Shown: positions 1-30,216 of the stretch, in pieces
How positions within the stretch are numbered: the stretch's first letter is position 1
Layout: each line of letters begins with the position of its first letter
Origin: a virus
Lineage: Duplodnaviria; Heunggongvirae; Uroviricota; Caudoviricetes
Reading direction: 5' to 3' (one strand)
Length of the DNA: 34,736 bases
Virus record (IMG/VR): IMGVR_UViG_2734482783_000005
Translations under genes and position numbers: made by a program
The notes under the pieces: model-generated
What the model was told of the DNA's origin: nothing
What the model saw: the letters and a program-made list of their open reading frames with translations, nothing else
The model's database searches: none

Positions 1-306
1 TGCGCTGAACTCAACACGCAGCATACTGACCCGCGACGACCATTTTGCGCAGGTCACCTTTATCTGCCGCCACTCATAAGGCGGCGTCCACAGAAAGGAT
101 TTCCAGCCCCCGTGCTCTTCCAGAAACGACTCCAGTACCGTGGCCTCCTCACGGGGGACAGAAAGCGTCACGCTGTACGTTTTCAGGTTGGCATTCAGCC
201 CGGCAGGCGCTCGCTGAGAATAGCCATCACCAAAGCGCACCTTTCTTACAGAAGGGACCGAAGCCACATCCATACCGGGTTTCACTTTCCAGCGGAAGGT
301 CTTCAT
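1..306 (-). CDS. M: Minor tail protein M, truncated by the window edge (N-terminal ~100 aa present)
   Basis: Reverse-strand translation from the ATG at 306..304 reads MKTFRWKVKPGMDVASVPSVRKVRFGDGYSQRAPAGLNANLKTYSVTL..., matching lambda gpM as I recall it. The start overlaps the H stop codon. Not in the ORF track because it runs off the window. Confidence 0.85.
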   Translation of the reverse strand, partial: MKTFRWKVKPGMDVASVPSVRKVRFGDGYSQRAPAGLNANLKTYSVTLSVPREEATVLESFLEEHGGWKSFLWTPPYEWRQIKVTCAKWSSRVSMLRVEFSA

Positions 307-2864
307 CGTCCACCTCCGGAGAACAGGCCACCATCACGCATCTGTGTCTGAATTTCATCACGGGCACCCTTGCGGGCCATGTCATACACCGCCTTCAGAG
401 CAGCCGGACCTATCTGCCCGTTCGTGCCGTCGTTGTTAATCACCACATGGTTATTCTGCTCAAACGTCCCGGACGCCTGCGACCGGCTGTCAGCCAGACT
501 GCCCGGTGTACCGACATAACCACCGGTGGCATAGCCGCGCATCAGCCGGTAGAGATTCCCCACGCCAATCCGGCTGGTTGCCTCCTTCGTGAAGACAAAT
601 TCACCACGGTGAACAATCCCCGCTGGCTCATATTTGCCGCCGGTTCCCGTAAATCCCCCGGTCGCAAAATGGAATTTCGCCGCAGCGGCCTGAATGGATG
701 TACCGCCTGACGCTGATGCGCCGCCACCAACAGCCCCGCCAATGGCGCTGCCGATACTCCCGACAATCCCCACCATTGCCTGCTTAAGCAGAATTTCTGT
801 CATCATGGACAGCACGGAACGGGTGAAGCTGCGCCAGTTCTGCTCACTGCCGGTCAGCATCGCTGCCATATTCTGTGCAATACCATCAAAGGTCTGCGTG
901 GCTGCACTTTTTACCTGCGACATACTGTCCGTGGCGCTCTCTTCCCACTCACTCCAGCCGGACTTCAGGCCTGCCATCCAGCTCCCGCGAAGCTGGTCTT
1001 CAGCCGCCCAGGTCTTTTTCTGCTCTGACATGACGTTATTCAGCGCCAGAGGATTATCGCCATACTGTTCCTTCAGGCGCTGTTCCGTGGCTTCCCGTTC
1101 TGCCTGCCGGTCAGTCAGCCCCCGGCTTTTCGCATCAATGGCGGCCCGTTTTGCCCGTTGCTGCTGTGCGAATTTATCCGCCTGCTGCGCCAGCGCGTTC
1201 AGGCGCTCCTGATACGTAACCTTGTCGCCAAGTGCAGCCAGCTGGCGTTTGTACTCCAGCGTCTCATCTTTATGCGCCAGCAGGGATTTCTCCTGTGCGG
1301 ACAGCTGGCGACGTTGTGCCGCCTCCTCCAGTACCGCGAACTGACTTTCTGCCTTCCACAAATCCCGGCGCTGCTGGCTGATTTTCTCATTCGCTCCGGC
1401 ATGCTTCTCCAGCGTCCGGAGTTCTGCCTGAAGCGTCAGCAGGGCAGCATGAGCACTGTCTTCCTGACGATCGCCCGCAGACACCTTCACGCCGGACTGT
1501 TTCGGCTTTTTCAGCGTCGCTTCATAATCCTTTTTCGCCGCCGCCATCAGCGTGTTGTAATCCGCCTGCAGGATTTTCCCGTCTTTCAGTGCCTTGTTCA
1601 GTTCTTCCTGACGGGCGGTATATTTCTCCAGCGGCGTCTGCAGCCGTTCGTAAGCCTTCTGCGCCTCTTCGGTATATTTCAGCCGTGACGCTTCGGTATC
1701 GCTCTGCTGCTGCGCATTTTTGTCCTGTTGAGTCTGCTGCTCAGCCTTCTTTCGGGCGGCTTCAAGCGCAAGACGGGCCTTTTCACGATCATCCCAGTAA
1801 CGCGCCCGCGCTTCATCGTTAACAAAATAATCATCCTTGCGCAGATTCCAGATGTCGTCTGCTTTCTTAAACGCAGCCTCTGCCTTAATCAGCATCTCCT
1901 GCGCGGTATCAGGACGACCAGTATCCAGCACCGCATCCCACATGGATTTGAAGGCCCGCGCAGTCCTGTCTGCCCAGGTCTCCAGCGTGCCCATGTTCTC
2001 TTTCAGGTGGCGGGTCTGGTCATCAAACCCTTTCGTTGCGGCCTCGTTCGCCGCCTGCAATGCCCCGGCTTCATCGCCGGAACGCTGCAACTGAGCAACA
2101 TACGCAATCTGCTCCGCCGTCACGTTATGGAACTGGCGTGCCATCGCCGTCAGCCCCGACGTCGGGTCTGTGGTCAGCTTCCCGAAGGCTTCAGCGACCT
2201 TGTCCACCTCCACGCCGGATGCAGAGGAGAAACGCGCCACACTCTGGCTGATGGACGCAATCTGAGCCTCACCGCTTACCCCCGCCTTAACCAGTGCGCT
2301 GAGTGACTCGCTGGTCTGGTTAAACGTCAGCCCTGCCGCCTGCCCGGCTCTGGACAGGACCAGCATACGATCTGCCGTCAGTCCCGCCTGATTGCCGGAA
2401 AGGACCAGCGTTTTGTTGAAATCGGACAGGGTTGAGTTGCCCTGATACCAGGCATACGCCAGCGCACCGGTCGCCACCGCCAGCGAGGTGGCCCCCACCA
2501 TCGGCAGGCTGATCGCACCGGCAAGCCCCCTGAACATGGGGATCATCCCGCCGAAGGAGTCCTTCACCTGCCCCCCCTGTTGCAGCAGGATCAGCCACGG
2601 ACTTTGCCCGCCTGCAAGCTGCGTGGCCACGTCGGTGAACTGTGCAGGCAGCATACGCATGGCGGCTTTATACTGCCCGACGGAAATCCCCGCTTTCTGT
2701 GCAGCCAGCGCCTGTCGGCTCAGCGACTGTTCAACGACTGCCGCTGTTTTTTTCGCATCACTTTCCGTACCGGAAAAATGACGCCTGACTCTGGCCATCT
2801 GCTCGTCAAATCTGGCCGCATCCAGACTTAAATCAACGACCAGATCGCCTACCGGTTCAGCCAT
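303..2864 (-). CDS. H: Tail tape measure protein (lambda gpH-like, 853 aa)
   Basis: 853-aa ORF starting MAEPVGDLVVDLSLDAARFDEQMARVRRHF, coiled-coil-rich middle and Gly-rich C-terminus; same length as lambda H and sits between T and M. Confidence 0.95.
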   Translation of the reverse strand: MAEPVGDLVVDLSLDAARFDEQMARVRRHFSGTESDAKKTAAVVEQSLSRQALAAQKAGISVGQYKAAMRMLPAQFTDVATQLAGGQSPWLILLQQGGQVKDSFGGMIPMFRGLAGAISLPMVGATSLAVATGALAYAWYQGNSTLSDFNKTLVLSGNQAGLTADRMLVLSRAGQAAGLTFNQTSESLSALVKAGVSGEAQIASISQSVARFSSASGVEVDKVAEAFGKLTTDPTSGLTAMARQFHNVTAEQIAYVAQLQRSGDEAGALQAANEAATKGFDDQTRHLKENMGTLETWADRTARAFKSMWDAVLDTGRPDTAQEMLIKAEAAFKKADDIWNLRKDDYFVNDEARARYWDDREKARLALEAARKKAEQQTQQDKNAQQQSDTEASRLKYTEEAQKAYERLQTPLEKYTARQEELNKALKDGKILQADYNTLMAAAKKDYEATLKKPKQSGVKVSAGDRQEDSAHAALLTLQAELRTLEKHAGANEKISQQRRDLWKAESQFAVLEEAAQRRQLSAQEKSLLAHKDETLEYKRQLAALGDKVTYQERLNALAQQADKFAQQQRAKRAAIDAKSRGLTDRQAEREATEQRLKEQYGDNPLALNNVMSEQKKTWAAEDQLRGSWMAGLKSGWSEWEESATDSMSQVKSAATQTFDGIAQNMAAMLTGSEQNWRSFTRSVLSMMTEILLKQAMVGIVGSIGSAIGGAVGGGASASGGTSIQAAAAKFHFATGGFTGTGGKYEPAGIVHRGEFVFTKEATSRIGVGNLYRLMRGYATGGYVGTPGSLADSRSQASGTFEQNNHVVINNDGTNGQIGPAALKAVYDMARKGARDEIQTQMRDGGLFSGGGR

Positions 2865-3291
2865 ACCGGACTCCTCCTGCGATCCCTTCTGATACTGTCA
2901 TCAGCATTACGTCATCCTCCGTCATGTCCGCCACATCCGGGGAAGCGGGGATAACTTCATTCCCGTCCGGGCCAAAGCGGACACCTCCGGCAAGCCCTGC
3001 CGCTTTCTGCATCAGCACATCATCTTCAGGCTCTTCGTCAGCCTCGCGCCGGTTCAGCAGACTGAAATCCAGCGGATGCATATCCGGATCGCTGAAAAAC
3101 AGGCTGAGCACGGTGTACGTCAGCCCGGAAAAGTGCATATCCAGCAGAACATCATGAAAATAATGGGTACTGTAAAAGCGGTGCCAGTCGGCATACTCCG
3201 TGGATGACATCCCGGCAAGCATGGCGCGCCAGTCGGGTCGCCCCATCTCACGCGCCAGTTTCAGGGCAAAACTCAGCTCACCGTCGAACAC
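2857..3291 (-). CDS. T: Tail assembly chaperone T segment, expressed as a G-T fusion by -1 frameshift
   Basis: 144-aa ORF in the -1 frame overlapping the 3' end of G; the slippery heptamer GGGAAAG lies on the minus strand at 3281..3287, just upstream of the G stop. Confidence 0.8.
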   Translation of the reverse strand: MFDGELSFALKLAREMGRPDWRAMLAGMSSTEYADWHRFYSTHYFHDVLLDMHFSGLTYTVLSLFFSDPDMHPLDFSLLNRREADEEPEDDVLMQKAAGLAGGVRFGPDGNEVIPASPDVADMTEDDVMLMTVSEGIAGGVRYG

Positions 3292-3695
3292 TTTCCCGCA
3301 GAAACAGGCTCTGCGGGCCCGGCGTCCTCTGTCTGTTCAGGGGCATTATTCACCACAAACTCATACATACCAGACAGCCGGTACACCACGTTTTCAGCAT
3401 GAGAAATTGCCTCCGTGGGCCAGGTGGTAAGCACTTCCTGCTCAATCTGTTTAACGGCTTCATTCATGGACGGCATCTGCGTCTTCTGCGGATGGTTATG
3501 CCACAGGGACATCGCCACCAGAAACGCGCCGGTTCTGATGGCGTCTTCCACAGTAAACTTCCGGTTGCTGTCTGACTCCGCCTGTTCTGCCTGCCGTTTC
3601 ATCAGGGCGAGATGCTCAATGCGCTGCAGGGCTGACAGTTCAGAAAGCGTGACGGTCACACCGTTATGTTCAAATGATTCGGTTTTCAGGAACAT
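3273..3695 (-). CDS. G: Tail assembly chaperone G (140 aa)
   Basis: 140-aa ORF MFLKTESFEHNGVTVTLSELSALQRIEHL...; lambda gpG length and position between V and T. Confidence 0.9.
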   Translation of the reverse strand: MFLKTESFEHNGVTVTLSELSALQRIEHLALMKRQAEQAESDSNRKFTVEDAIRTGAFLVAMSLWHNHPQKTQMPSMNEAVKQIEQEVLTTWPTEAISHAENVVYRLSGMYEFVVNNAPEQTEDAGPAEPVSAGKCSTVS

Positions 3696-3710
3696 CGCTG
3701 ACTCTCCGGA

Positions 3711-4451
3711 TTAACTGGCGGTGACGGTAATTTCTGCAACCGCAGCAAACTCACCATTACCGGATACAACCGGAATGTTGACCTTGCCTGCAGCAACGCC
3801 GTTCACGGTGATGGTCATACCACTGACCGACACGGTGGCTTTTGTTTTATCCGCAGACACCGCACGAAAGCTCTTGTCGGTTACGCCCTCCGGCTGGAAG
3901 GCCACGGTCAGCGTGGTGCTCTGCCCTTTCACCACCGAGGTGCTGGCAGGCGTCACGGTCATGCCGGTTGCCGCTGTTACCGTGCTGCGATCTTCTGCCA
4001 TCGACGGACGTCCCACATTGGTGACTTTCACCGTGCGGGTGATCACTTCCTTCGCCGTCACCGCCTTACCGATACTGCTGACCCAGCCACGGAACACATC
4101 GACCGTGCCGTTCGGGAAGCGGATTTTATAGGCACGGGTATCGCCTTCATTAAACCACGCCAGCAGCGCCTGCTGCCCCTGCTCTCCGGGCATCCACGCC
4201 AGCGTGAAGCTGGTATCTCCGGCAGATTTCTGCCCCTGCCCGGTCGCAGTCCAGTCTGCATCTTCATCATCGAGATAGCTGTCGTCATAGGACTCAGCGG
4301 TCAGTTCGCCGGGCGTCAGGTCTTTAACTTTTGCCAGACGCGACCAGTCAACGTCTGAAAGCGGATTCGCATAAGGGTCACCGCTCCCCTTATAAACCCA
4401 CAGGGTGGTCCCGGCACCTTTCACCGGCATTGTAGGATTTGGTACAGGCAT
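3711..4451 (-). CDS. V: Major tail tube protein V (246 aa from the internal Met; Ig-like C-terminal domain)
   Basis: The ORF contains [36 protein letters not shown]..., the lambda gpV N-terminus. The track ORF begins 10 codons upstream; the start was chosen to give the lambda-length protein. Confidence 0.9.
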
Positions 4452-4458
4452 AGCGTCC

Positions 4459-4854
4459 TCACATTTCATAGGTAATGACATAAGTCAGATCGGCTGAACT
4501 CCACAGGCCCGCATCATCGTCGCGCCGGTAGTCATAGCCGCTGGCCACCATACTGGTGATCAAATCTGACAGTGCCGGGATATCGCTCATCACCGGATAA
4601 ATCCGGGACTCCATCCACGCATCCAGCTCTGAATCCGGCACCTGAGCAGGCAGGAAAACTTCGATATGCAGCTCCGCCTGCCAGGTATCGCTGTCCAGCT
4701 CTTCGCCCGTGTATTCAGCGCCGGTGAGATAAACGGCAACTGCCGGAAAATCCGCCTCATCAAAAACAGCGGGGCGACCATCAAAAAACGTCGCCCCGGT
4801 GTCATGCTTCTCCAGTGCATCCAGTACGGCTGCACGGAGTTCAGTATGTTTCAT
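4459..4854 (-). CDS. U: Tail terminator protein U (131 aa)
   Basis: [43 protein letters not shown]...; lambda gpU length and position. Confidence 0.9.
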
Positions 4855-5429
4855 CGCTTTATTACCATCCTCAGTTGATGCTGCAGCGCATAGCCCAGCT
4901 CTTTCGGAAGACGCTCACGCCGTATCCGCTCAATATTCTGTTTAAACGCCGTGGTCAGCGGCACCGCCATCGGGATTTTCACCACATCAATGGGGTAACG
5001 GTTTTTCCCGGCCACACGCTGCATGACATGCCAGCGGCCATTTTTCAGTTGCTGAATAAACGCGCCGGGAATACGACGGTTTCCCACCACAAGCACGCTG
5101 CCGCCACCTTTCAGGGATGAACGCTGCCCCTTTTTACGACGTCTGCGGCGGGAAAGGACAACCCGCGCGTTACCCAGCTTGATTACGGGCAAATCCCCCC
5201 GGTTAACCCTGATTCTGGCCTGCGGATTTTTGACCGTGGCCCTTTTCAGCCTGGCCCTTTCCTTTACCAGTTTCCGGCGTACCTTTGTCTCACGGGCAAC
5301 CTGTGACGCAGACTGCGATATCGCGGATGACGCAACGCGGTTAATGGCCATTGCGGCGGCACCAGGCACCGCCGTTTTGCTGATACGGCTGAGGTTTTCA
5401 ACGGCCTGCTCAAGACCTTTTATGGCCAT
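4851..5429 (-). CDS. Z: Tail completion protein Z (192 aa)
   Basis: MAIKGLEQAVENLSRISKTAVPGAAAMAINRVASSAISQSASQVARETKVRRK...; lambda gpZ length; overlaps the U start. Confidence 0.9.
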   Translation of the reverse strand: MAIKGLEQAVENLSRISKTAVPGAAAMAINRVASSAISQSASQVARETKVRRKLVKERARLKRATVKNPQARIRVNRGDLPVIKLGNARVVLSRRRRRKKGQRSSLKGGGSVLVVGNRRIPGAFIQQLKNGRWHVMQRVAGKNRYPIDVVKIPMAVPLTTAFKQNIERIRRERLPKELGYALQHQLRMVIKR

Positions 5430-5440
5430 ACATCCCCCTT

Positions 5441-5794
5441 TCAGCGGCGACGGTTAACGGCAGGCGGCACGCCACGCCCAAGCCAGAGATGACAGCTTCC
5501 GCCATCATCCGGCGAAATCCGGTCCACCCAGAAGTTTTCCTCGCCGATGGTCAGTGTGTCTCCACGCCGCAGCTGCCGCACATCATCAGTCCGGACAAAC
5601 AGGGACGGGCTGGAGCCTTCAACGCGCACCCCCTGTCCGGCATAGCTGATATTTTCAGGGTCATCAAAAACACCACGTATCACAGCACCGGACAGCTCAC
5701 CGGATGTCATGGTGGCTGACGTTCCCATGTACCCGCGTATCGTTTCATCGGCGCGGGCAATGGCAGCATCGAACAGGTTATCGGAATCAGCCAC
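5441..5794 (-). CDS. FII: Head-tail joining protein FII (117 aa)
   Basis: MADSDNLFDAAIARADETIRGYMGTSATMTSGELSGAVIRGVFDDPENISYAGQGVRVEG...; lambda FII length and order. Confidence 0.9.
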   Translation of the reverse strand: MADSDNLFDAAIARADETIRGYMGTSATMTSGELSGAVIRGVFDDPENISYAGQGVRVEGSSPSLFVRTDDVRQLRRGDTLTIGEENFWVDRISPDDGGSCHLWLGRGVPPAVNRRR

Positions 5795-5805
5795 AGCGCC
5801 TCCCG

Positions 5806-6201
5806 TTATTGCATTCTGGCCAGGCCATGTTCTGTCATTTCGGCTGCCACACCGGCAGAGACACGAAACGCCGTTCCCGGCAGCACAAATGCCACAGGCT
5901 CATCCCGCGTGGCGTGAAGTGCATCAGTATGCAGCGTCACCAGTGCCACGACCGTGACCAGAGCAGCCGTATCAATCACGGTATCCGGCTGCGCTGATAC
6001 CACCTCATTTTCATGTCCGGTCAGCGCATTTTCCGGGCTGACAGATGTGTCCTGACCGGCAGCGTCATCCGTGTCATCAAGCTCCTCTTCCAGCTCTGCC
6101 ACACGGAGCACCAGTTCTTCTTTCGTCCCCGTCAGGCTGACATCACGGTTCAGTTGCTCACCCAGCACCTGAAGACGGGCAATCAGTTCATCTTTCGTCA
6201 T
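5806..6201 (-). CDS. FI: DNA packaging / head completion protein FI (about 131 aa from the internal Met)
   Basis: The ORF contains MTKDELIARLQVLGEQLNRDVSLTGTKEELVLRVAELEEELDDTDD... and ends ...MTEHGLARMQ; start placed at MTKDEL to match lambda FI. Confidence 0.85.
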   Translation of the reverse strand: MTKDELIARLQVLGEQLNRDVSLTGTKEELVLRVAELEEELDDTDDAAGQDTSVSPENALTGHENEVVSAQPDTVIDTAALVTVVALVTLHTDALHATRDEPVAFVLPGTAFRVSAGVAAEMTEHGLARMQ

Positions 6202-14154: not shown

Positions 14155-14448
14155 ATGAAAAAAATGTTGTTTTCTGCCGCTCTGGCAATGCTTATTACAG
14201 GATGTGCTCAACAGACGTTTACTGTTGGAAACAAACCGACAGCAGTAACACCAAAGGAAACCATCACCCATCACTTCTTCGTTTCGGGAATTGGACAGGA
14301 GAAAACTGTTGATGCAGCCAAAATTTGTGGCGGCGCAGAAAATGTTGTTAAAACAGAAACCCAGCAAACATTCGTAAATGGATTGCTCGGTTTTATTACT
14401 TTAGGCATTTATACTCCGCTGGAAGCGCGTGTGTATTGCTCACAATAA
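14155..14448 (+). CDS. bor: Bor outer-membrane lipoprotein (Iss-family serum-resistance protein), 97 aa
   Basis: MKKMLFSAALAMLITGCAQQTFTVGNKPTAVTPKETITHHFFVSGIGQEKTVDAAKICGGAENVVKTETQQTFVNGLLGFITLGIYTPLEARVYCSQ; lipobox LITGC; matches lambda Bor and is opposite in orientation to the lysis genes, as in lambda. Confidence 0.9.
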   Translation: MKKMLFSAALAMLITGCAQQTFTVGNKPTAVTPKETITHHFFVSGIGQEKTVDAAKICGGAENVVKTETQQTFVNGLLGFITLGIYTPLEARVYCSQ

Positions 14449-14479: not shown

Positions 14480-14941
14480 CTATCTGCACTGCTCATTAAT
14501 ATACTTCTGGGTTCCTTCCAGTTGTTTTTGCATCGTGATCAGCCTCTCTCTGAGGGTGAAATAATCCCGTTCAGCGGTGTCTGCCAGTCGGGGGGAGGCT
14601 GCATTATCCACGCCGGAGGCGGTGGTGGCTTCACGCACTGACTGACAGACTGCTTTGATGTGCAACCGACGACGACCAGCGGCAACATCATCACGCAGAG
14701 CATCATTTTCAGCTTTCGCATCAGCTAACTCCTTCGTGTATTTTGCATCGAGCGCAGCAACATCACGCTGACGCATCTGCATGTCAGTAATTGCCGCGTT
14801 CGCCAGCTTCAGTTCTCTGGCATTTTTGTCGCGCTGGGCTTTGTAGGTAATGGCGTTATCACGGTAATGATTAACAGCCCATGACAGGCCGACGATGATG
14901 CAGATAACCAGAGCGGAGATAATCGCGGTTACTCTGTTCAT
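14480..14941 (-). CDS. Rz: Spanin, inner-membrane subunit Rz (153 aa from the internal Met)
   Basis: [80 protein letters not shown]...; N-terminal TM helix plus coiled coil; lambda Rz. Confidence 0.9.
14539..14721 (-). CDS. Rz1: Spanin, outer-membrane lipoprotein Rz1 (60 aa), embedded in the +1 frame of Rz
   Basis: [60 protein letters not shown]; lipobox VVGC and Pro-rich body; lambda Rz1. Confidence 0.85.
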
Positions 14942-15435
14942 TGCTGACCCCACAAACAGATTTCACGCTCAATCTCACGACGAGTCATGAGACCTTTCCA
15001 TTGCTTACCGCCAGCATATGTCCAGCGACGTAGCTGATCACATGCGCCTTTGATATCGCCCTGGTTTATTTTGCGAAGAAGCGTCGATGTTCTGAAATTG
15101 CCAGCACCCACGTTGTAAACGAATGAGTAAAGAGCGCCGCGCATTGTTTCCGGTATATCGACTTTGATGTACGGGTTAATTTGTCTGGCGACCGTGGCAA
15201 GGTCTTTATTCAGGAGGGCTTTGCATTCTGCTTTGGTATACGTTTTACCGAGCATGATGTCTTTTCCTGTATGCCCGTGACATACAGTCCATACACCAAC
15301 AATATCTTTATATGGTATGTAGCTGACACCTTCCAGACCATCGTCACCACTCGGACCAGTGATGAGCACAGACGCTATGGCAACAGCCCCACCACCAATA
15401 GCAGCTGCTACAGCCTTGCGTAATGATGGCGACAT
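14938..15435 (-). CDS. R: SAR endolysin (phage 21 R-type, T4-lysozyme/GH24 fold), 165 aa
   Basis: [85 protein letters not shown]...; Gly/Ala-rich N-terminal signal-anchor-release segment followed by a lysozyme domain. Not the lambda R transglycosylase. Confidence 0.9.
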
Positions 15436-15650
15436 TATTCACCTCTCGCAGCCTTACGCTTATCTTCTTTAATCTTGAAATAAAGGTTTGTCAGATAAGT
15501 GAGAAAACCCAACACAAGGCTTCCAAGCACTCCAATCGCCGCCCACTGTGACGGACTGACCTGATCAAGCCACTGTAAAAACCAGTAGCCAGCACTGCCT
15601 GCAGAGGTGCCGTAGGCAATGCCCGTTGTTAACTTGTCCATGGATTTCAT
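15435..15650 (-). CDS. S: Pinholin (phage 21 S-type, class II holin), 71 aa with dual-start motif
   Basis: [71 protein letters not shown]; two TM helices; Met1 and Met4 give the antiholin/holin pair described for S21. Confidence 0.9.
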
Positions 15651-15725: not shown

Positions 15726-15755
15726 AAAAGAAAAACGCCAGCGATTATTCTGGCG
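15726..15755 (-). terminator. Intrinsic terminator downstream of the AraC-family gene
   Basis: Minus-strand hairpin CGCCAG/CTGGCG (plus-strand 15736..15741 pairing with 15750..15755) followed by a T-run (plus-strand A-run 15726..15735). Confidence 0.55.
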
Positions 15756-15817
15756 TAGCTGAAAGCATCATATAATCATCAAATATGAAAATTACAAAAT
15801 CATCAAAACGCATCACG

Positions 15818-16558
15818 TTACATCTTGCCTTTTTCTAAAAAAAATCTTGATGAATATTCATGGGGGGGAACACCAAAATATCTTCTGAAAACGCTTATAA
15901 AATATGACGCGCTTTCATAACCACATATTTTAGCAACTTTCCCAACAGGATAGAAATTGTAACTTAATAACCTTTCAGCCATCACCATTCGTTCTTCAAG
16001 AATTAATTTGCTAAATGATAAGCCTTCGTGTTTTAGTTTTCTTTTTAACAAACTTTCACTCAGACATAGTCTTGAAGAAATATCACAAAGTCTCCATGCT
16101 GCAGATATGTCCGAGTGAATAATAGCCTTAACTTTGCTTCCTAAACTATTAAGACACCCAAACAAAAAACTCTGAAACATTTTTTCCGAGGATAAAATAG
16201 CAAGACATGCAAATAATATTGAATTTTTAACTACAGCCGTAGTTTCACCATCACAATTCAAGCAACCTATCAAGTTCTTTAACAATGAATAGTCTGTACA
16301 GTTTACTATCAAGTATGCTGAATAAAATCTTCTTACAGAAAAAGGTGAGAGTGTATTGTTTTTAAAGAAGTCATTAACTGTTTTCTCTTCAATATCCACG
16401 ATCATTATATTATCTTTATTTGAAGAAAAGAAAACTTTTAAATTGTATTCTATAGCAACAACACTTCCTTTTTTTAGAGAGATTTTTTCTTTACCAAGCC
16501 GGATATCAAACGAGTTCAAAACCAAAATGATAGAACATATGCATGGCATATCATCCAC
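15818..16558 (-). CDS. AraC/XylS-family transcriptional regulator (cargo gene)
   Basis: 246-aa ORF with C-terminal AraC-type HTH (...KVAKICGYESASYFISVFRRYFGVPPHEYSSRF); the sequence is visibly AT-rich compared with flanking phage genes; start codon uncertain. Confidence 0.8.
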   Translation of the reverse strand: MDDMPCICSIILVLNSFDIRLGKEKISLKKGSVVAIEYNLKVFFSSNKDNIMIVDIEEKTVNDFFKNNTLSPFSVRRFYSAYLIVNCTDYSLLKNLIGCLNCDGETTAVVKNSILFACLAILSSEKMFQSFLFGCLNSLGSKVKAIIHSDISAAWRLCDISSRLCLSESLLKRKLKHEGLSFSKLILEERMVMAERLLSYNFYPVGKVAKICGYESASYFISVFRRYFGVPPHEYSSRFFLEKGKM

Positions 16559-16867: not shown

Positions 16868-17827
16868 CTAGTTCACCAAGAGTCTTAGAGCCAGTTCATC
16901 AGGATAGGGGTGGAAGTAATTCTGTATAAGCAAATAATCATCAGGATACTCTGCCAAGTAATGCTTCAGCAAAGTTAATGGCGCAAGAAGAGGTAGCGTG
17001 CCAGCTCGATAGTTAAGTATAACATCGCTCAACTCTTTACGCTGACGTGTATTTAAGCAGTTACTAAAATATCCCTGTATATGCATCAGCACATTCGTGT
17101 GATTTTTACGTGATGCAGGTTTTCTGAGAATCGCCATCAGCTTCTCACGATACACCTCAAAGTATGATTCAAGGTCTGCCCACTCATGTATTGCAGCCAC
17201 AAATGGCCCCATCTCTTTATAACCGGCCTGGCTATGCGCCAACAACTGAAGCTTATAACGGCTATGAAAAGCTAATAATTCCCTTCTTGATAATTTCGCT
17301 TTATAAAGATGATTGAGCTCATGTAAAGCAAATACTCTTTCAACAAAGTTTTCACGAAGCACTGGATCATGTAGTCGCCCATCCTCTTCAACCGGTAGCC
17401 AGGAAAACCTTTCCATCAACGTGCTCGTAAATAGTCCCACTCCATCTTTACGACCACGATTACCATTTTCATCATATACACGCACGCGTTCCATACCACA
17501 GCTAGGAGATTTTGCACAAACCACAAATCCCGATACATCCTTTAATTTGTCAAGATAAGAACGACTAAACTCTGTCATTTTCTCTGTAACATCCTCATTC
17601 TGGTCGTGGCTGAAACACATCCGTATATTTCCTTGCGCCGAGCGAACAAGACGTAGAGCAGGACGCGGAACTGGAAGCCCTATAGCCATTTCCGGACATA
17701 CTGGTTTGAATGTTACCCATTCCAGTAATTTGTCCATTAAAAAGCTAGCTCTTTTGTGACCACCATCAAAACGGACAGAAGAACCGGCCAAACAACCACT
17801 GATCCCAACGACAGGTTTTTTTATCAT
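16868..17827 (-). CDS. DUF523 (TudS-type [4Fe-4S] desulfidase) fused to DUF1722; RudS-like thiouridine desulfidase candidate (319 aa)
   Basis: N-terminus MIKKPVVGISGCLAGSSVRFDGGHKRASF has the DUF523 signature (G-x-S-x-C-L-x-G...VR-x-DGGHK); further Cys at VCPEM and CAKSPSCGMERV; the C-terminal half resembles YbgA/DUF1722. Confidence 0.7.
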   Translation of the reverse strand: MIKKPVVGISGCLAGSSVRFDGGHKRASFLMDKLLEWVTFKPVCPEMAIGLPVPRPALRLVRSAQGNIRMCFSHDQNEDVTEKMTEFSRSYLDKLKDVSGFVVCAKSPSCGMERVRVYDENGNRGRKDGVGLFTSTLMERFSWLPVEEDGRLHDPVLRENFVERVFALHELNHLYKAKLSRRELLAFHSRYKLQLLAHSQAGYKEMGPFVAAIHEWADLESYFEVYREKLMAILRKPASRKNHTNVLMHIQGYFSNCLNTRQRKELSDVILNYRAGTLPLLAPLTLLKHYLAEYPDDYLLIQNYFHPYPDELALRLLVN

Positions 17828-18019
17828 TGCCTACCCCTTGACTAATTCATTAACAGGTTAACAGTGTAGTACACGACCTAAACTGCCTTTCTGCCGTCAT
17901 CACTGACAATTTTTTTGTTATGGACTATTCCTAATATAGTAGGAAAGTTCTTTAAGTGATCGGTAGTAATCATCTATCTTTAATACTTACTCTCAACTAT
18001 CAAAAGTACAGGATATATT

Positions 18020-18544
18020 ATGAAGTTATGGCCTGTGTTGACTGGCATTGCACTCTCTTTCACTCTGATAGCATGTAAGGCCCCGACACCACCTAAAGGT
18101 GTGCAGCCGATTACAAATTTTGACACCAACCGCTACCTCGGAAAATGGTATGAAATAGCTCGGCTTGAGAACCGATTTGAACGTGGTCTGGAACAGGTCA
18201 GCGCCACTTATGGGAAACGGAACGACGGAGGGATTAGTGTACTTAATCGTGGATATGACCCAACGAAAAACAAATGGAGCGAGAGCGAAGGTAAAGCATA
18301 CTTTACAGGAGATAATACAACTGCAGCGTTGAAGGTTTCGTTTTTTGGCCCCTTCTATGGTGGCTATAATGTAATCAAACTGGATGATGAGTATAAGTAT
18401 GCTCTTGTCAGTGGTCCGAACAGAGAATACCTATGGATTCTGGCACGGACTCCAACTATTCCAGATAATGTAAAAGCAGACTATGTGCGTACTGCTCAAA
18501 AATTGGGATTCAATGTCAATGAACTATTATGGGTCAAACAATAA
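18020..18544 (+). CDS. Bacterial lipocalin Blc-like outer-membrane lipoprotein (174 aa)
   Basis: MKLWPVLTGIALSFTLIACKAPTPPKGVQPITNFDTNRYLGKWYEIARLENRFERGLEQVSATYGKRNDGGISVLNRGYDP...KAYFTGDNTTAALKVSFFGPFYGGYNVIKLDDEYKYALVSGPNREYLWILARTPTI; lipobox LIAC and the lipocalin signature G-x-W-Y-E-I-A-R, closely resembling E. coli Blc. Confidence 0.85.
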   Translation: MKLWPVLTGIALSFTLIACKAPTPPKGVQPITNFDTNRYLGKWYEIARLENRFERGLEQVSATYGKRNDGGISVLNRGYDPTKNKWSESEGKAYFTGDNTTAALKVSFFGPFYGGYNVIKLDDEYKYALVSGPNREYLWILARTPTIPDNVKADYVRTAQKLGFNVNELLWVKQ

Positions 18545-18571
18545 AATACCTAACCGGATTGATACTTATTA

Positions 18572-18601
18572 GAAAAAAAAACCAGCCTTTGGGGAGGCTG
18601 G
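18572..18601 (-). terminator. Intrinsic terminator downstream of Q, candidate tR'
   Basis: Minus-strand hairpin CCAGCCT/AGGCTGG (plus-strand 18582..18588 and 18595..18601) followed by a run of nine T (plus-strand A-run 18573..18581); about 100 nt downstream of the Q stop. Confidence 0.55.
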
Positions 18602-18650
18602 CTAAATCAGGGAACAAGCTGTTATATGATCATAACTACGTTGCGATTCT

Positions 18651-18690
18651 AACATTTGAAACATTAGTCTAATGATAACCAGACAGCAAC
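18651..18690 (-). promoter_or_regulatory. Candidate late promoter PR' (-35 TTGCTG, 17-nt spacer, -10 TAATGT)
   Basis: Minus-strand reading places TTGCTG (plus 18685..18690) and TAATGT (plus 18651..18656) between the Q stop and the candidate tR'. Assigned by position and hexamer match only. Confidence 0.35.
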
Positions 18691-18701: not shown

Positions 18702-19079
18702 TTATCTCAAACAATCAGCATCCATCTCCAATCTGAGATCCAACACCATCAGCATGCCCTCCACTACGCCCTCAGCTTTTTGGAGCATCCTGCCAATCCA
18801 ACAATCAGATCTACCATGCTTACGCGCAAGCGCCATAAAAGTCATGCCGCCGACATAATAGTCCACTAACAAATCATGCAAATCGCTGTTGTTATTTTTC
18901 AGACGGGCCATGCACCCGCAAATGATCATCGCGTCATCGTCACAACATTGCGGACGAGATTTTACTTTTGAAGGAATTAATCCCTTAAAACCGGCGGCAA
19001 TGGACGACCAGGTCACATCTTCATGATTATTAGCCGCCCACGCTCCCCAACGCTCAAGAACCATCTGAATATCACGCAT
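18702..19079 (-). CDS. Q: Late antitermination protein Q (non-lambda type, resembling DLP12 QuuD)
   Basis: [88 protein letters not shown]...; Cys-rich zinc-binding region; start placed at the Met with a GGAG Shine-Dalgarno (track ORF starts 5 codons earlier). Confidence 0.85.
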
Positions 19080-19301
19080 CAACTTACTCCACAAAAATCA
19101 GACCAGAACGCCAATTACAAGCAAAAATCAGCAAAACAGTATTAGTTGATTGTTATCTCTGGCTTCATACTCCTGCTCCTGTCAGTGTTTTGGCTTAATT
19201 CTTCAGTATTCGGTAATCGGTCAAAACAGAACCGGGGAAACGATATAAGCGCAGACGCCCCCAGCGGTGGCGAAGACGTTCTGCCATATAAAACTCAAAC
19301 A

Positions 19302-23996: not shown

Positions 23997-24106
23997 ATGC
24001 CCTCCATAGTAACCTCGAATAAAAAATACAATATGTACTTTCCAAATACAAGCAAAAATACACATTGTGCATGGATGGTTCCAGTACAGAGCGTAATAAT
24101 AAGGAC
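23997..24106. promoter_or_regulatory. Divergent immunity control region (OR with PR/PRM) between cro and cI
   Basis: 110-bp AT-rich intergenic region containing several short palindromes (TACAATATGTA at 24027..24037; CACATTGTG) and repeated AAATACA motifs; operators are inferred by position only. Confidence 0.5.
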
Positions 24107-24766
24107 ATGAAAATGAAATGGTATGAACTGGCTAGATCCAGAATGAAAGAGCTCGGCATAACTCAAGAGAAGTTAGCCGAAGAGCTAGGTATGACGCAGG
24201 GTGGGATTGGACACTGGTTGCGCGGATCTCGTCATCCATCTCTTAGTGATATTGGTGTGGTGTTTAAATACCTTGGTATTGATAACATATCATTCAACCA
24301 CGACGGGACATTTTCACCTGTTGGCGAATACTCATCGGCCCCAGTTAAAAAACAATATGAGTACCCTGTATTTTCTCATGTTCAGGCTGGGATGTTCTCT
24401 CCAGAACTCAGAACCTTTACCAAAGGCGATGCGGAGAGATTGGTAAGCACAACCAAAAAAGCCAGTGACTCTGCATTCTGGCTTGAGGTTGAAGGTAACT
24501 CAATGACCGCACCAACAGGTTCCAAACCCAGTTTTCCTGACGGGATGTTAATTCTGGTTGACCCTGAGCAAGCTGTTGAGCCCGGCGATTTCTGCATAGC
24601 CAGACTTGGTGGTGATGAATTTACCTTCAAGAAACTGATCAGGGATAGCGGTCAGGTGTTTCTACAGCCACTAAACCCACAATACCCAATGATCCCATGC
24701 AATGAGAGTTGTTCCGTTGTGGGGAAAGTTATCGCTAGTCAGTGGCCTGAAGAGACGTTTGGGTAA
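24107..24766 (+). CDS. cI: CI prophage repressor: non-lambda N-terminal HTH domain fused to a lambda-type C-terminal LexA-like (S24) autocleavage/dimerisation domain
   Basis: N-terminus [45 protein letters not shown] is unlike lambda CI; the C-terminus ...[135 protein letters not shown] matches the lambda CI C-terminal domain. AAGGA Shine-Dalgarno before the chosen start. Confidence 0.9.
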
Positions 24767-24838: not shown

Positions 24839-25741
24839 ATGAGCCAAAATCTTGATTCAACACTAGAAACATACATTTCTTGGCAGTTAGAGCAATTTAA
24901 AAATAACTTTTTCCCAAGCTGCGACGTCATAGCGTACTACGGTGGTATCTTTCCATGGTCAAAAGAAGTTTACCAACCAAAACTTGAGGCTATTGGGGAG
25001 ATGGCTAACAGTCGTACCAATAGATTTCTAGTTATTATACTCAATACAAATGGTGGCTCTGTTGAGTCTGTGGAAAAAATGGTAGAAATTACAAGGCATT
25101 TCTATCAAGAGGTATATTTTATCATTCCAGATATGGCCATGTCGGCAGGCACAATATGGTGTATGTCTGGAGATAAAATTTACATGAACTATGCTTCTTC
25201 ATTAGGCCCCATTGACCCTCAAGTGCAATCCTCTGACGGTAAATGGGTTCCTGCTTTGGGATACCTTGATAAAGTTGAAGAAATGATTACTAAATCCAGA
25301 GAAGGAACCATTACCCAAGCTGAACTAATGATGCTTAGTCAGTTAGATCTTGCGCACTTAAGGAGATACGAGCAAGCCAGAGAGCTATCAATAGACTTGC
25401 TTAAGAAGTGGCTTGTAGAGTATAAATTCAGAGAGTGGACGGTTCATCAAGGTAACACAAAACGAGGAAAGCTAGTTTCCAAGAGGGAAAAAGAAGCAAG
25501 AGCTAAAATGATCGCTACCGCTCTTAGTGACAACGGAAAGTGGCATTCTCACGGAAGAACGATAGGAATAAATACTCTTATCAATGACTTAAGAATTAAA
25601 GTAGAAGACTTTACATACGACAAAGATTTTAGCATGGCGTTAAAAAATCTGCACAACGTCATTAATGAATACATGTATAAGACAAATCGACAGGTTCTTG
25701 TTCTGTCTTCATTCCCCTTCTCAGAACAAAGTGAGTCATAA
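24839..25741 (+). CDS. ClpP/SppA-fold (S49/SDH-like) serine-peptidase-domain protein, 300 aa, in the cI-downstream slot
   Basis: ...RFLVIILNTNGGSVESVEKMVEITRHFYQEVYFIIPDMAMSAGTIWCMSGDKIYMNYASSLGPIDPQ... aligns by eye with the ClpP core (LNSPGGSV ... GQAASMGA), placing a candidate nucleophile Ser in MSAGT. AT-rich; C-terminal half Lys/Glu-rich and helical-looking; no TM segment seen. Confidence 0.7.
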   Translation: MSQNLDSTLETYISWQLEQFKNNFFPSCDVIAYYGGIFPWSKEVYQPKLEAIGEMANSRTNRFLVIILNTNGGSVESVEKMVEITRHFYQEVYFIIPDMAMSAGTIWCMSGDKIYMNYASSLGPIDPQVQSSDGKWVPALGYLDKVEEMITKSREGTITQAELMMLSQLDLAHLRRYEQARELSIDLLKKWLVEYKFREWTVHQGNTKRGKLVSKREKEARAKMIATALSDNGKWHSHGRTIGINTLINDLRIKVEDFTYDKDFSMALKNLHNVINEYMYKTNRQVLVLSSFPFSEQSES

Positions 25742-28027: not shown

Positions 28028-28099
28028 GTGCGGTTTTACCGCATACCAATAACGCTTCACTCGAGGCGTTTTTCGTTATGTATAAATAAGGAGCACACC

Positions 28100-28264
28100 A
28101 TGCAATATGCCATTGCAGGGTGGCCTGTTGCTGGCTGCCCTTCCGAATCTTTACTTGAACGAATCACCCGTAAATTACGTGACGGATGGAAACGCCTTAT
28201 CAACATACTTAATCAGCCAGGAGTCCCAAAGAATGGATCAAACACTTATGGCTATCCAGACTAA
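28100..28264 (+). CDS. cIII: CIII, inhibitor of FtsH that stabilises CII (54 aa)
   Basis: [54 protein letters not shown]; lambda CIII. Confidence 0.9.
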   Translation: MQYAIAGWPVAGCPSESLLERITRKLRDGWKRLINILNQPGVPKNGSNTYGYPD

Positions 28265-28753: not shown

Positions 28754-29539
28754 ATGAGTACAGCACTCGCAACGCTGGCTGGGAAGCTGGCTGAACGTGT
28801 CGGCATGGATTCTGTCGACCCACAGGAACTGATCACCACTCTTCGCCAGACGGCATTTAAAGGTGATGCCAGCGATGCGCAGTTCATCGCATTGTTGATC
28901 GTCGCCAACCAGTACGGCCTTAATCCGTGGACGAAAGAAATTTACGCCTTCCCTGATAAGCAGAACGGCATCGTTCCGGTGGTGGGCGTTGATGGCTGGT
29001 CCCGCATCATCAATGAAAACCAGCAGTTTGATGGCATGGACTTTGAGCAGGACAATGAATCCTGTACATGCCGGATTTACCGCAAGGACCGTAATCATCC
29101 GATCTGCGTTACCGAATGGATGGATGAATGCCGCCGCGAACCATTCAAAACTCGCGAAGGCAGAGAAATCACGGGGCCGTGGCAGTCGCATCCCAAACGG
29201 ATGTTACGGCATAAAGCCATGATTCAGTGTGCCCGTCTCGCCTTCGGATTTGCTGGTATCTATGACAAGGATGAAGCCGAGCGCATTGTCGAAAATACCG
29301 CATACACTGCAGAACGTCAGCCGGAACGCGACATCACTCCGGTTAACGATGAAACCATGCAGGAGATTAACACTCTGCTGATCGCCCTGGATAAAACATG
29401 GGATGACGACTTATTGCCGCTCTGTTCCCAGATATTTCGCCGCGACATTCGCGCATCGTCAGAACTGACACAGGCCGAAGCAGTGAAAGCTCTTGGATTC
29501 CTGAAACAGAAAGCCACTGAGCAGAAGGTGGCAGCATGA
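28754..29539 (+). CDS. bet: Bet (Red-beta single-strand annealing protein), 261 aa
   Basis: [100 protein letters not shown]...; lambda Bet. Confidence 0.95.
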
Positions 29540-30216
29540 CACCGGACATTATCCTGCAGCGTACCGGGATCGACGTGAGAGCTGTCGAACAGGGGGATGA
29601 TGCATGGCACAAATTACGGCTCGGCGTCATCACCGCTTCAGAAGTTCACAACGTGATAGCAAAGCCCCGCTCAGGAAAGAAGTGGCCTGACATGAAAATG
29701 TCCTACTTCCACACCCTGCTGGCTGAGGTTTGCACCGGTGTTGCTCCGGAAGTTAATGCTAAGGCGCTGGCCTGGGGAAAACAGTACGAGAACGACGCCA
29801 GAACCCTGTTTGAATTCACTTCCGGCGTGAATATTACTGAATCCCCGATCATCTATCGCGACGAAAGTATGCGCACCGCCTGCTCTCCCGATGGTTTATG
29901 CAGTGACGACAACGGCCTTGAACTGAAATGCCCGTTTACCTCCCGGGATTTCATGAAATTCCGGCTCGGTGGTTTCGAGGCAATAAAATCGGCTTACATG
30001 GCCCAGGTGCAGTACAGCATGTGGGTGACGCGAAAAGATGCCTGGTACTTTGCCAACTATGACCCGCGCATGAAGCGTGAAGGCCTGCATTATGTCGTGA
30101 TTGAGCGGAATGAAAAGTACATGGCGAGTTTTGACGAGATGGTGCCGGAGTTCATCGAAAAAATGGACGAGGCACTGGCTGAAATTGGTTTTGTATTTGG
30201 GGAGCAATGGCGATGA
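29536..30216 (+). CDS. exo: Exo (lambda 5'-3' exonuclease, Red-alpha), 226 aa
   Basis: [110 protein letters not shown]...; lambda Exo. Confidence 0.95.

Follow-up and report, generated by a model that had tools for sequence, protein, structure and literature searches.

A lipocalin lipoprotein gene that faces the late operon of a prophage raises two questions: does it work as a gene of the lysogen, and where did it come from? We addressed both in a window of 34,736 nucleotides, the whole stretch of DNA analyzed here, which is a lambda-like prophage of E. coli whose late genes lie on the - strand. Lambda-type phages match most of positions 1-25000 at 97-98% identity, yet these backbone relatives, lambda included, cover just 69-86% of the window length. 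The window also encodes Nu1, Rz, CI, RecT/YqaJ, and an integrase. A tRNA search of the window found none. An Rfam search of the window found no match within the lipocalin cassette described below and returned only Lambda_thermo, the cIII thermoregulator (28087-28145, +; 88.5 bits), which confirms a lambda-type early-left region. We consider it likely, with good confidence, that the lipocalin gene is a working moron encoding a periplasmic, outer-membrane-anchored protein of the Blc family, that it belongs to a fixed three-gene cassette, and that it was captured together with ybgA and lost its regulator.

The lipocalin gene and its predicted product

The lipocalin gene (18020-18544, +) starts with an ATG and encodes 174 aa. 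The open reading frame list, profile matches, alignment, and a tree place its product in the Blc family and, within it, in a paralogue clade linked to MerR-type genes. A Shine-Dalgarno sequence (AGGA, 18010-18013) lies 6 bases 5' of the ATG. In the translation, a lipoprotein signal peptide (MKLWPVLTGIALSFT; 18020-18076, +) ends in the lipobox L16-I17-A18-C19, followed by a lysine (K20) at +2, and the lipocalin signature reads G41-K-W-Y-E-I-A-R48. The signal is also apparent from alignments: A18 and C19 are invariant, or nearly so, in two alignments of relatives. Two profiles are matched at full length: Pfam PF08212 (Lipocalin_2; E 2e-43, 148 bits against a cutoff of 24, profile positions 2-146 of 146) and NCBIfam NF007786 ("outer membrane lipoprotein Blc"; 315.5 bits against a curated cutoff of 267, positions 1-174 of 176). 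The crystal structures of E. coli Blc (3mbt, 1qwd, and 2aco) align with the phage protein end to end and without gaps (E ~1e-68), and identity to chromosomal E. coli Blc is 60% over 174 residues, again without gaps. Because of this end-to-end alignment, the open reading frame is not the truncated fragment whose possibility the first-pass annotation had raised, and the complete Blc-like lipocalin with lipobox (LIAC) and GxWYEIAR motif (here GKWYEIAR) that it described on the + strand is indeed there.

The tryptophan of the GxW motif in strand A and a conserved arginine packing on it form the hallmark pair of lipocalins. Both are present: G41-K42-W43 and R143 are invariant in an alignment of the two enterobacterial clades and distant relatives. 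An AlphaFold model from a 27-sequence alignment was of low confidence (mean pLDDT 63.8, pTM 0.52), and Foldseek with this model ranked Blc structures first at a TM-score of just 0.42. We therefore take the predicted fold from the 60% identity to solved Blc and not from the model.

By an established rule, a lysine at +2 after the lipid-modified cysteine predicts sorting to the outer membrane. The protein is thus predicted to be exported, lipidated at Cys19, and anchored in the outer membrane. By analogy with Blc, it probably binds a hydrophobic ligand. The in vitro ligands of E. coli Blc are lysophosphatidylethanolamines, fatty acids, and heme or porphyrins; a reporter fusion suggested that Blc takes part in responding to starvation and high osmolarity, and its physiological role is still debated (PMC8177097). 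E. coli Blc (ampC-blc-sugE locus; PDB 1QWD, 2ACO, and 3MBT) shares family, length, and lipoprotein signal with the phage protein, as well as the blocks GxWYEIAR, FFGPFYGGYNV, and YLWILxR. The two differ at +2, where Blc has a serine and the phage protein a lysine, and at the position of Blc G84, which is an asparagine in the phage protein and varies across the MerR-linked clade. In a separate observation, the chromosomal blc of E. coli Eco889 (locus 2405-2938) encodes a glutamate at position 84 (DREMW), i.e., the G84E variant. Blc G84E has been associated with changed lysophosphatidylethanolamine levels and with inflammation of the gut (PMC8177097).

The lipocalin cassette between Q and the holin gene

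The lipocalin gene is convergent with the antiterminator gene Q (18702-19094, -; Pfam Phage_antitermQ PF06530, E 2.5e-51; annotated as Q family in relatives) and lies just past a canonical tR'-type terminator. This intrinsic terminator (18571-18603, -) combines a 9-bp GC-rich stem with a U9 tract and is located 27-59 nt past the lipocalin stop codon, so that the gene points toward the hairpin and ends 27 nt before the U-tract. Its folding energy on the - strand is -19.1 kcal/mol (z -2.8), compared with a z of -0.7 on the + strand. The + strand of the hairpin has no U tract and is hence not a terminator in that direction; a terminator scan, together with folding of the hairpin at 18571-18603, found none on the + strand after the lipocalin gene. 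We assigned the hairpin (18603-18571, -) to tR' by eye. Also picked by eye was a candidate late promoter pR' (18632-18651, -), with a -10 element TAGAAT at 18651-18646 followed by a -10-like repeat, TAGTTAT; a consensus promoter scan did not call this candidate. The region downstream of Q is too diverged to align with a DLP12-type element, and the comparison thus fixes neither pR' nor the cargo junction.

Being convergent with pR' and Q and shielded by tR', the lipocalin gene lies outside the late operon, in agreement with the first-pass annotation, which had it opposing late transcription. It should also need a promoter of its own, since it converges with pR' and the nearest upstream + strand gene is bor. 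This Bor-like lipoprotein gene (14155-14448, +) likewise opposes late transcription; with the bor homolog on the + strand as well, two + strand lipoprotein cargo genes flank the lysis cassette.

The same annotation had placed the lipocalin gene between Q/tR' and the lysis cassette. This is accurate on the Q/tR' side; on the other side, the gene does not abut the lysis genes, and two further genes intervene. The first, divergent from the lipocalin gene, encodes a YbgA-like protein (16868-17827, -) in which profiles identify a DUF523/2-thiouracil desulfurase domain and a DUF1722 domain. The second, in very AT-rich DNA, encodes an AraC/XylS-family regulator of the YdeO/GadX/PatE type by profile matches (15818-16558, -). 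A terminator-like hairpin from a hairpin scan (15735-15756, -) follows the AraC-like gene and precedes the holin gene. There the lysis cassette begins (14938-15650, -; profile matches) with an S21-type holin (15650-15435) and a lysozyme (15435-14938), and Rz lies beyond. The YbgA-like gene runs in the direction of the late transcript, and induction would switch it on along with the lysis genes.

These three genes are a unit in their arrangement. Among the best 80 of 172 IMG/VR relatives, the order lysozyme (-), holin (-), AraC (-), YbgA (-), lipocalin (+), Q (-) is found in 73 of the 73 loci that are not cut by a contig end. Two isolated phages, 1H12 and IdasGreatGrand, and an E. coli chromosome show an identical cassette order. 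Hence, a fixed cassette of three genes, the lipocalin gene being one of them, fills the slot between Q and the holin gene. PHROGs has end-to-end families for all three cassette proteins, each labeled "unknown function" (PHROG 3275 for the YbgA-like protein), and none of the three matched a PADLOC defense model at E <= 0.01. Our literature searches turned up no work on the function of the phage lipocalin, the phage YbgA-like protein, or the three-gene cassette.

The AraC-like gene stands apart from its partners in composition: its GC content is 0.26-0.33, compared with 0.41-0.44 for the rest of the cassette and 0.52-0.56 for the packaging genes. A promoter scan found a promoter-like site of its own (16823-16796, -). 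The regulator is 53% identical to ECs_0287 of the Sakai prophage Sp1. PatE has been assigned to this same prophage (PMC10877973), and ECs_0287 is probably PatE.

We found the lipocalin to be widespread in E. coli. A full-length phage-type gene (~90-100% nucleotide identity) is present in 1042 of 5426 complete E. coli genomes (~19%), and the complete Q-to-holin segment in 941 of them. Meanwhile, nearly all 5426 genomes carry chromosomal blc at ~68% identity. A protein 100% identical to that of the window, annotated as "Lipocalin Blc," is encoded by the isolated lambdoid phages 1H12 and the Lambda_ev series, and 172 IMG/VR viral contigs encode lipocalin relatives. Across phage isolates in general, matches are rare (19 of 50,697 records, several of these 19 being bacterial contigs). 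The view of the first-pass annotation that lipocalins are not usual phage cargo thus applies to isolates at large but not to E. coli lambdoids, for which Mathieu et al. 2020 (PMC6969025) count blc among the morons and report it in >50% of lambda phages from the infant gut. That moron (1H12, Lambda_ev; PHROG 2809) is the same gene, with 100% protein identity and the same cassette. The lipocalin is therefore a common, annotated, and published moron of E. coli lambdoids, and was already known. Its moron character is seen in its variable presence among similar phages, in its position in a cargo slot used by a DLP12-type porin, and in the published listing (PMC6969025).

Outside this group, Morganella phage IME1369_01 encodes a distant, 51%-identical lipocalin between its lysis and terminase genes, which shows that such genes have been acquired independently. 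In E. coli NWU_3 (NZ_CP123009.1, 4696003-4731803), a 100%-identical cassette occurs in a truncated prophage remnant near ilvA, beside a DLP12-like element, which suggests that the prophage has decayed or been rearranged while the cargo cassette was kept.

Other lambdoid elements also place membrane-protein genes beside the lysis cassette so that they face the late transcript, as for bor of lambda and the nmpC-type porin of DLP12, which lies between quuD and essD. The DLP12-type porin even occupies the identical Q-to-holin slot, again opposite to Q. Bor and the porin belong to other protein families, however, and the lipocalin is accompanied by two late-strand genes that share one orientation.

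A second enterobacterial lipocalin clade

Two features of the locus had gone unremarked in the first-pass annotation: the invariant three-gene cassette and the distinctness of the lipocalin from host blc. The nearest non-phage relatives (74-82% identity) are chromosomal genes of Leclercia, Enterobacter nematophilus, Huaxiibacter, Buttiauxella, Kosakonia, Cedecea, Klebsiella, and Raoultella. In a neighbor-joining tree, the phage protein falls within this MerR-linked clade, apart from the canonical, sugE/ampC-linked blc of E. coli, Salmonella, and Citrobacter; Buttiauxella izardii has one lipocalin of each clade. Neighbors sugE and ampC are absent from the open reading frame list of the window. 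We also considered that the phage gene is a duplicate of host blc and rejected this origin on three grounds: 60% identity to Blc versus 74-82% to the chromosomal relatives, the tree, and the lack of sugE/ampC synteny. The check on host blc that had been proposed earlier gives the same result, with a chromosomal copy in nearly all E. coli genomes and 60% protein identity marking a different paralogue. By these sequence comparisons, the phage lipocalin is a second paralogue without a counterpart in E. coli chromosomes, from another clade and locus than Blc, and the host keeps its own blc besides.

The chromosomal loci of this clade resemble the phage cassette in layout. In the MerR/MlrA-linked loci of Leclercia, E. 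nematophilus, Buttiauxella, Raoultella, Klebsiella, and Cedecea, the lipocalin gene has the same divergent orientation as in the phage. In the first four genera, it diverges from a MerR-family gene that encodes MlrA-type helical and C-terminal domains, with a transthyretin/HIUase-like gene next in line and ybgA after it; the ybgA product is 71-74% identical to the YbgA-like protein of the phage. Thus, ybgA belongs to the neighboring operon in four genera, and the phage cassette has it too. What differs is that the MerR-like and transthyretin/HIUase-like genes are gone and an unrelated AraC regulator has been added. Neither the open reading frame list nor a profile search revealed a MerR-like ORF in 17828-18019 or elsewhere in the cassette. 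From the clade and the chromosomal loci, it follows that the phage carries the lipocalin-ybgA pair minus the intervening genes. The lipocalin locus of Huaxiibacter is already without the MerR gene.

In Cedecea and Klebsiella, the MerR gene heads a different operon (about 1-5900 of these loci) with SnoaL, SDR, amine-oxidase, DUF1365, CFA-synthase-like, and DUF2878 genes. This operon resembles the furan-fatty-acid operon of Rhodobacter with UfaD and UfaO (DUF1365) (PMC7380195), its amine oxidase being UfaD-like and its DUF1365 protein UfaO-like. The resemblance hints at possible synthesis of furan-type or other modified fatty acids in enterobacteria, in which the lipocalin might be a partner. 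In Vibrio cholerae, MerR-like regulators adjoining photolyase genes mediate a blue-light response (PMC5241685); their likeness to the lipocalin-linked MerR genes is an analogy only.

Selection, regulation, and alternative readings

We compared the window with a common allele at 95% identity (E. coli WP4-S18-ESBL-09, which has the same cassette). Between these alleles, dN/dS is 0.065 for the lipocalin gene (dS ~0.19), 0.106 for ybgA, and 0.243 for araC. Among the best 80 of 172 IMG/VR relatives, all 80 lipocalin ORFs are intact, and 21 nucleotide alleles encode only 12 protein alleles. The lipocalin is therefore under strong purifying selection. The AraC-like gene evolves faster, with an amino acid identity of 81% between the alleles versus 97%.

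The divergent intergenic region between the ybgA-like and lipocalin genes (17828-18019, 192 bp) holds the Shine-Dalgarno sequence and candidate -10 elements at 17975-17987. A consensus sigma-70 scan of this region called no + strand promoter. Hence, the promoter positions are inferred, and the -10 candidates were picked by hand and are guesses. The two halves of the region have diverged to different degrees. The lipocalin-proximal ~126 bp shows 6 differences between the alleles (4.8%), against a synonymous divergence of 17%, and the ybgA-proximal 66 bp shows ~21%, close to the synonymous rate. The disparity between 4.8% and ~21% points to regulatory DNA under constraint next to the lipocalin gene. 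An alignment further revealed a short motif upstream of the lipocalin gene that is common to the chromosomal loci and the phage. This motif, TCTCAATATACTACGAAT, is overlapped by an inverted repeat, TTCCTA-N6-TAGGAA (17928-17945), which may be a remnant of a MerR-type operator and merR -10 element. We regard it as a weak lead: the repeat occurs once in the window, but a match arose in 10 of 100 shuffles, and it is imperfect in the 95% allele.

Taken together, gene anatomy, conservation, and selection argue for a working gene that is probably transcribed independently of the late operon. The proposed course of events is as follows. First, lipocalin and ybgA would have been captured together from an enterobacterial chromosome, and the MerR/MlrA-like regulator lost. 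Second, in the lysogen, the short constitutive pR' transcript would halt at tR' before reaching the lipocalin 3' end, which would leave the gene free for transcription from its own promoter within the 192-bp divergent region. Third, on induction, Q-modified polymerase would pass tR', cross the lipocalin gene in antisense, and then transcribe ybgA and araC in the sense direction on its way to the lysis genes. Because the late transcript would cross it antisense, the lipocalin gene is the sole member of the cassette that cannot be a late gene. Finally, the Cys19-lipidated, Lys +2-sorted lipocalin would bind a hydrophobic ligand in the outer membrane or periplasm and provide E. coli with a second paralogue, plausibly for envelope lipid maintenance under stress. 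The steps of regulation and expression are reasoned from lambda biology and gene anatomy. Own-promoter expression in the lysogen, as the first-pass annotation suggested, is supported by the layout of the locus, and we infer it from there; since the regulator of the chromosomal homologs is missing, a promoter acquired with the gene might have little or no activity in E. coli.

A bolder form of this proposal is possible, although we hold it tentatively and think it more apt to be wrong than right. It sees the cassette as a regulator-stripped piece of an enterobacterial MerR/MlrA(BluR)-type stress locus, which in some genera adjoins the UfaD- and UfaO-like lipid-modifying enzymes of furan-fatty-acid type; a lipocalin functionally distinct from Blc would measurably change lysogen fitness together with the YbgA-like protein as an Fe-S enzyme. 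If so, the phage lipocalin might handle, e.g., oxidized or modified lipids or tetrapyrroles in the periplasm, the lysogen would show a fitness effect in the gut or when exposed to oxidative or light stress, and lambdoid phages would have spread this fragment through about one-fifth of E. coli.

An alternative is that all three genes act as one acid- or stationary-phase stress module, with the PatE-like AraC protein activating the lipocalin and ybgA promoters in place of MerR. The invariant linkage of the three genes, the loss of the native regulator, and the conserved region upstream of the lipocalin gene agree with this, and PatE/PsrB relatives are known activators of stress promoters that are AT-rich and silenced by H-NS, hdeA and gadE among them (PMC10877973). 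The AraC-like gene may thus have replaced the lost regulator. Nevertheless, its low GC content (0.26-0.33 versus about 0.42), its faster evolution (81% versus 97% identity between alleles, dN/dS 0.24), and its absence from the chromosomal source loci suggest that it was perhaps acquired separately and has host targets, and an AraC binding site was not identified. We judge a single regulatory unit to be unlikely.

We find it very unlikely that the lipocalin serves the phage itself by modifying the cell surface or excluding superinfection, as Cor or T5 Llp do, through masking or inactivating an outer-membrane receptor in the lysogen. Such a role would suit a predicted outer-membrane lipoprotein on a lysogen-compatible strand, membrane proteins including sie and bor dominate lambda morons (Mathieu et al.; PMC6969025), and Morganella phage IME1369_01 independently acquired its 51%-identical lipocalin next to lysis genes. 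It is, however, at odds with the 74-82% identity to chromosomal paralogues in metabolic or stress loci, with selection that is strongly purifying and not diversifying, with the lack of a PADLOC defense-model match, and with the joint capture of a cytoplasmic enzyme-like neighbor, ybgA. Least probable of all, and in our view close to dismissal, is a functionless passenger that hitch-hiked with a successful phage lineage and fell silent when its MerR-type activator was lost: a deleted regulator, the lack of a called promoter, and the absence of a functional study from the literature searched would fit, but not a dN/dS of 0.065 at a dS of ~0.19, 80 of 80 intact ORFs among the best 80 relatives, 12 protein versus 21 nucleotide alleles, and upstream DNA conserved beyond neutral expectation.

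The favored reading, a captured moron under the control of its own promoter, adds modestly to what was known: the paralogue identity of the lambdoid "blc," the invariant trio with YbgA- and PatE-like partners, and the strong constraint on the lipocalin, all of which should be useful to catalogs of phage cargo. With ~19% of complete E. coli genomes as carriers, this is one of the commonest uncharacterized coliphage cargo cassettes. Little rests on this single locus, given that the gene is already in public phage and E. coli annotations and in print.

Two further genes in the window merit mention. A 433-aa diguanylate cyclase with a GGDEF domain is encoded at 31403-32704 (-), between the RecT/YqaJ recombination genes (28754-30216) and the integrase gene; it is likely a second cargo gene and could alter c-di-GMP signaling in lysogens. 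A 300-aa ClpP-like, SDH-type serine protease/NfeD-like protein is encoded at 24839-25741 (+), directly 3' of the co-oriented gene for a CI-like repressor (24065-24766). The slot downstream of CI is the position of rexAB in lambda, and this gene may be an exclusion or defense gene expressed in the lysogen.
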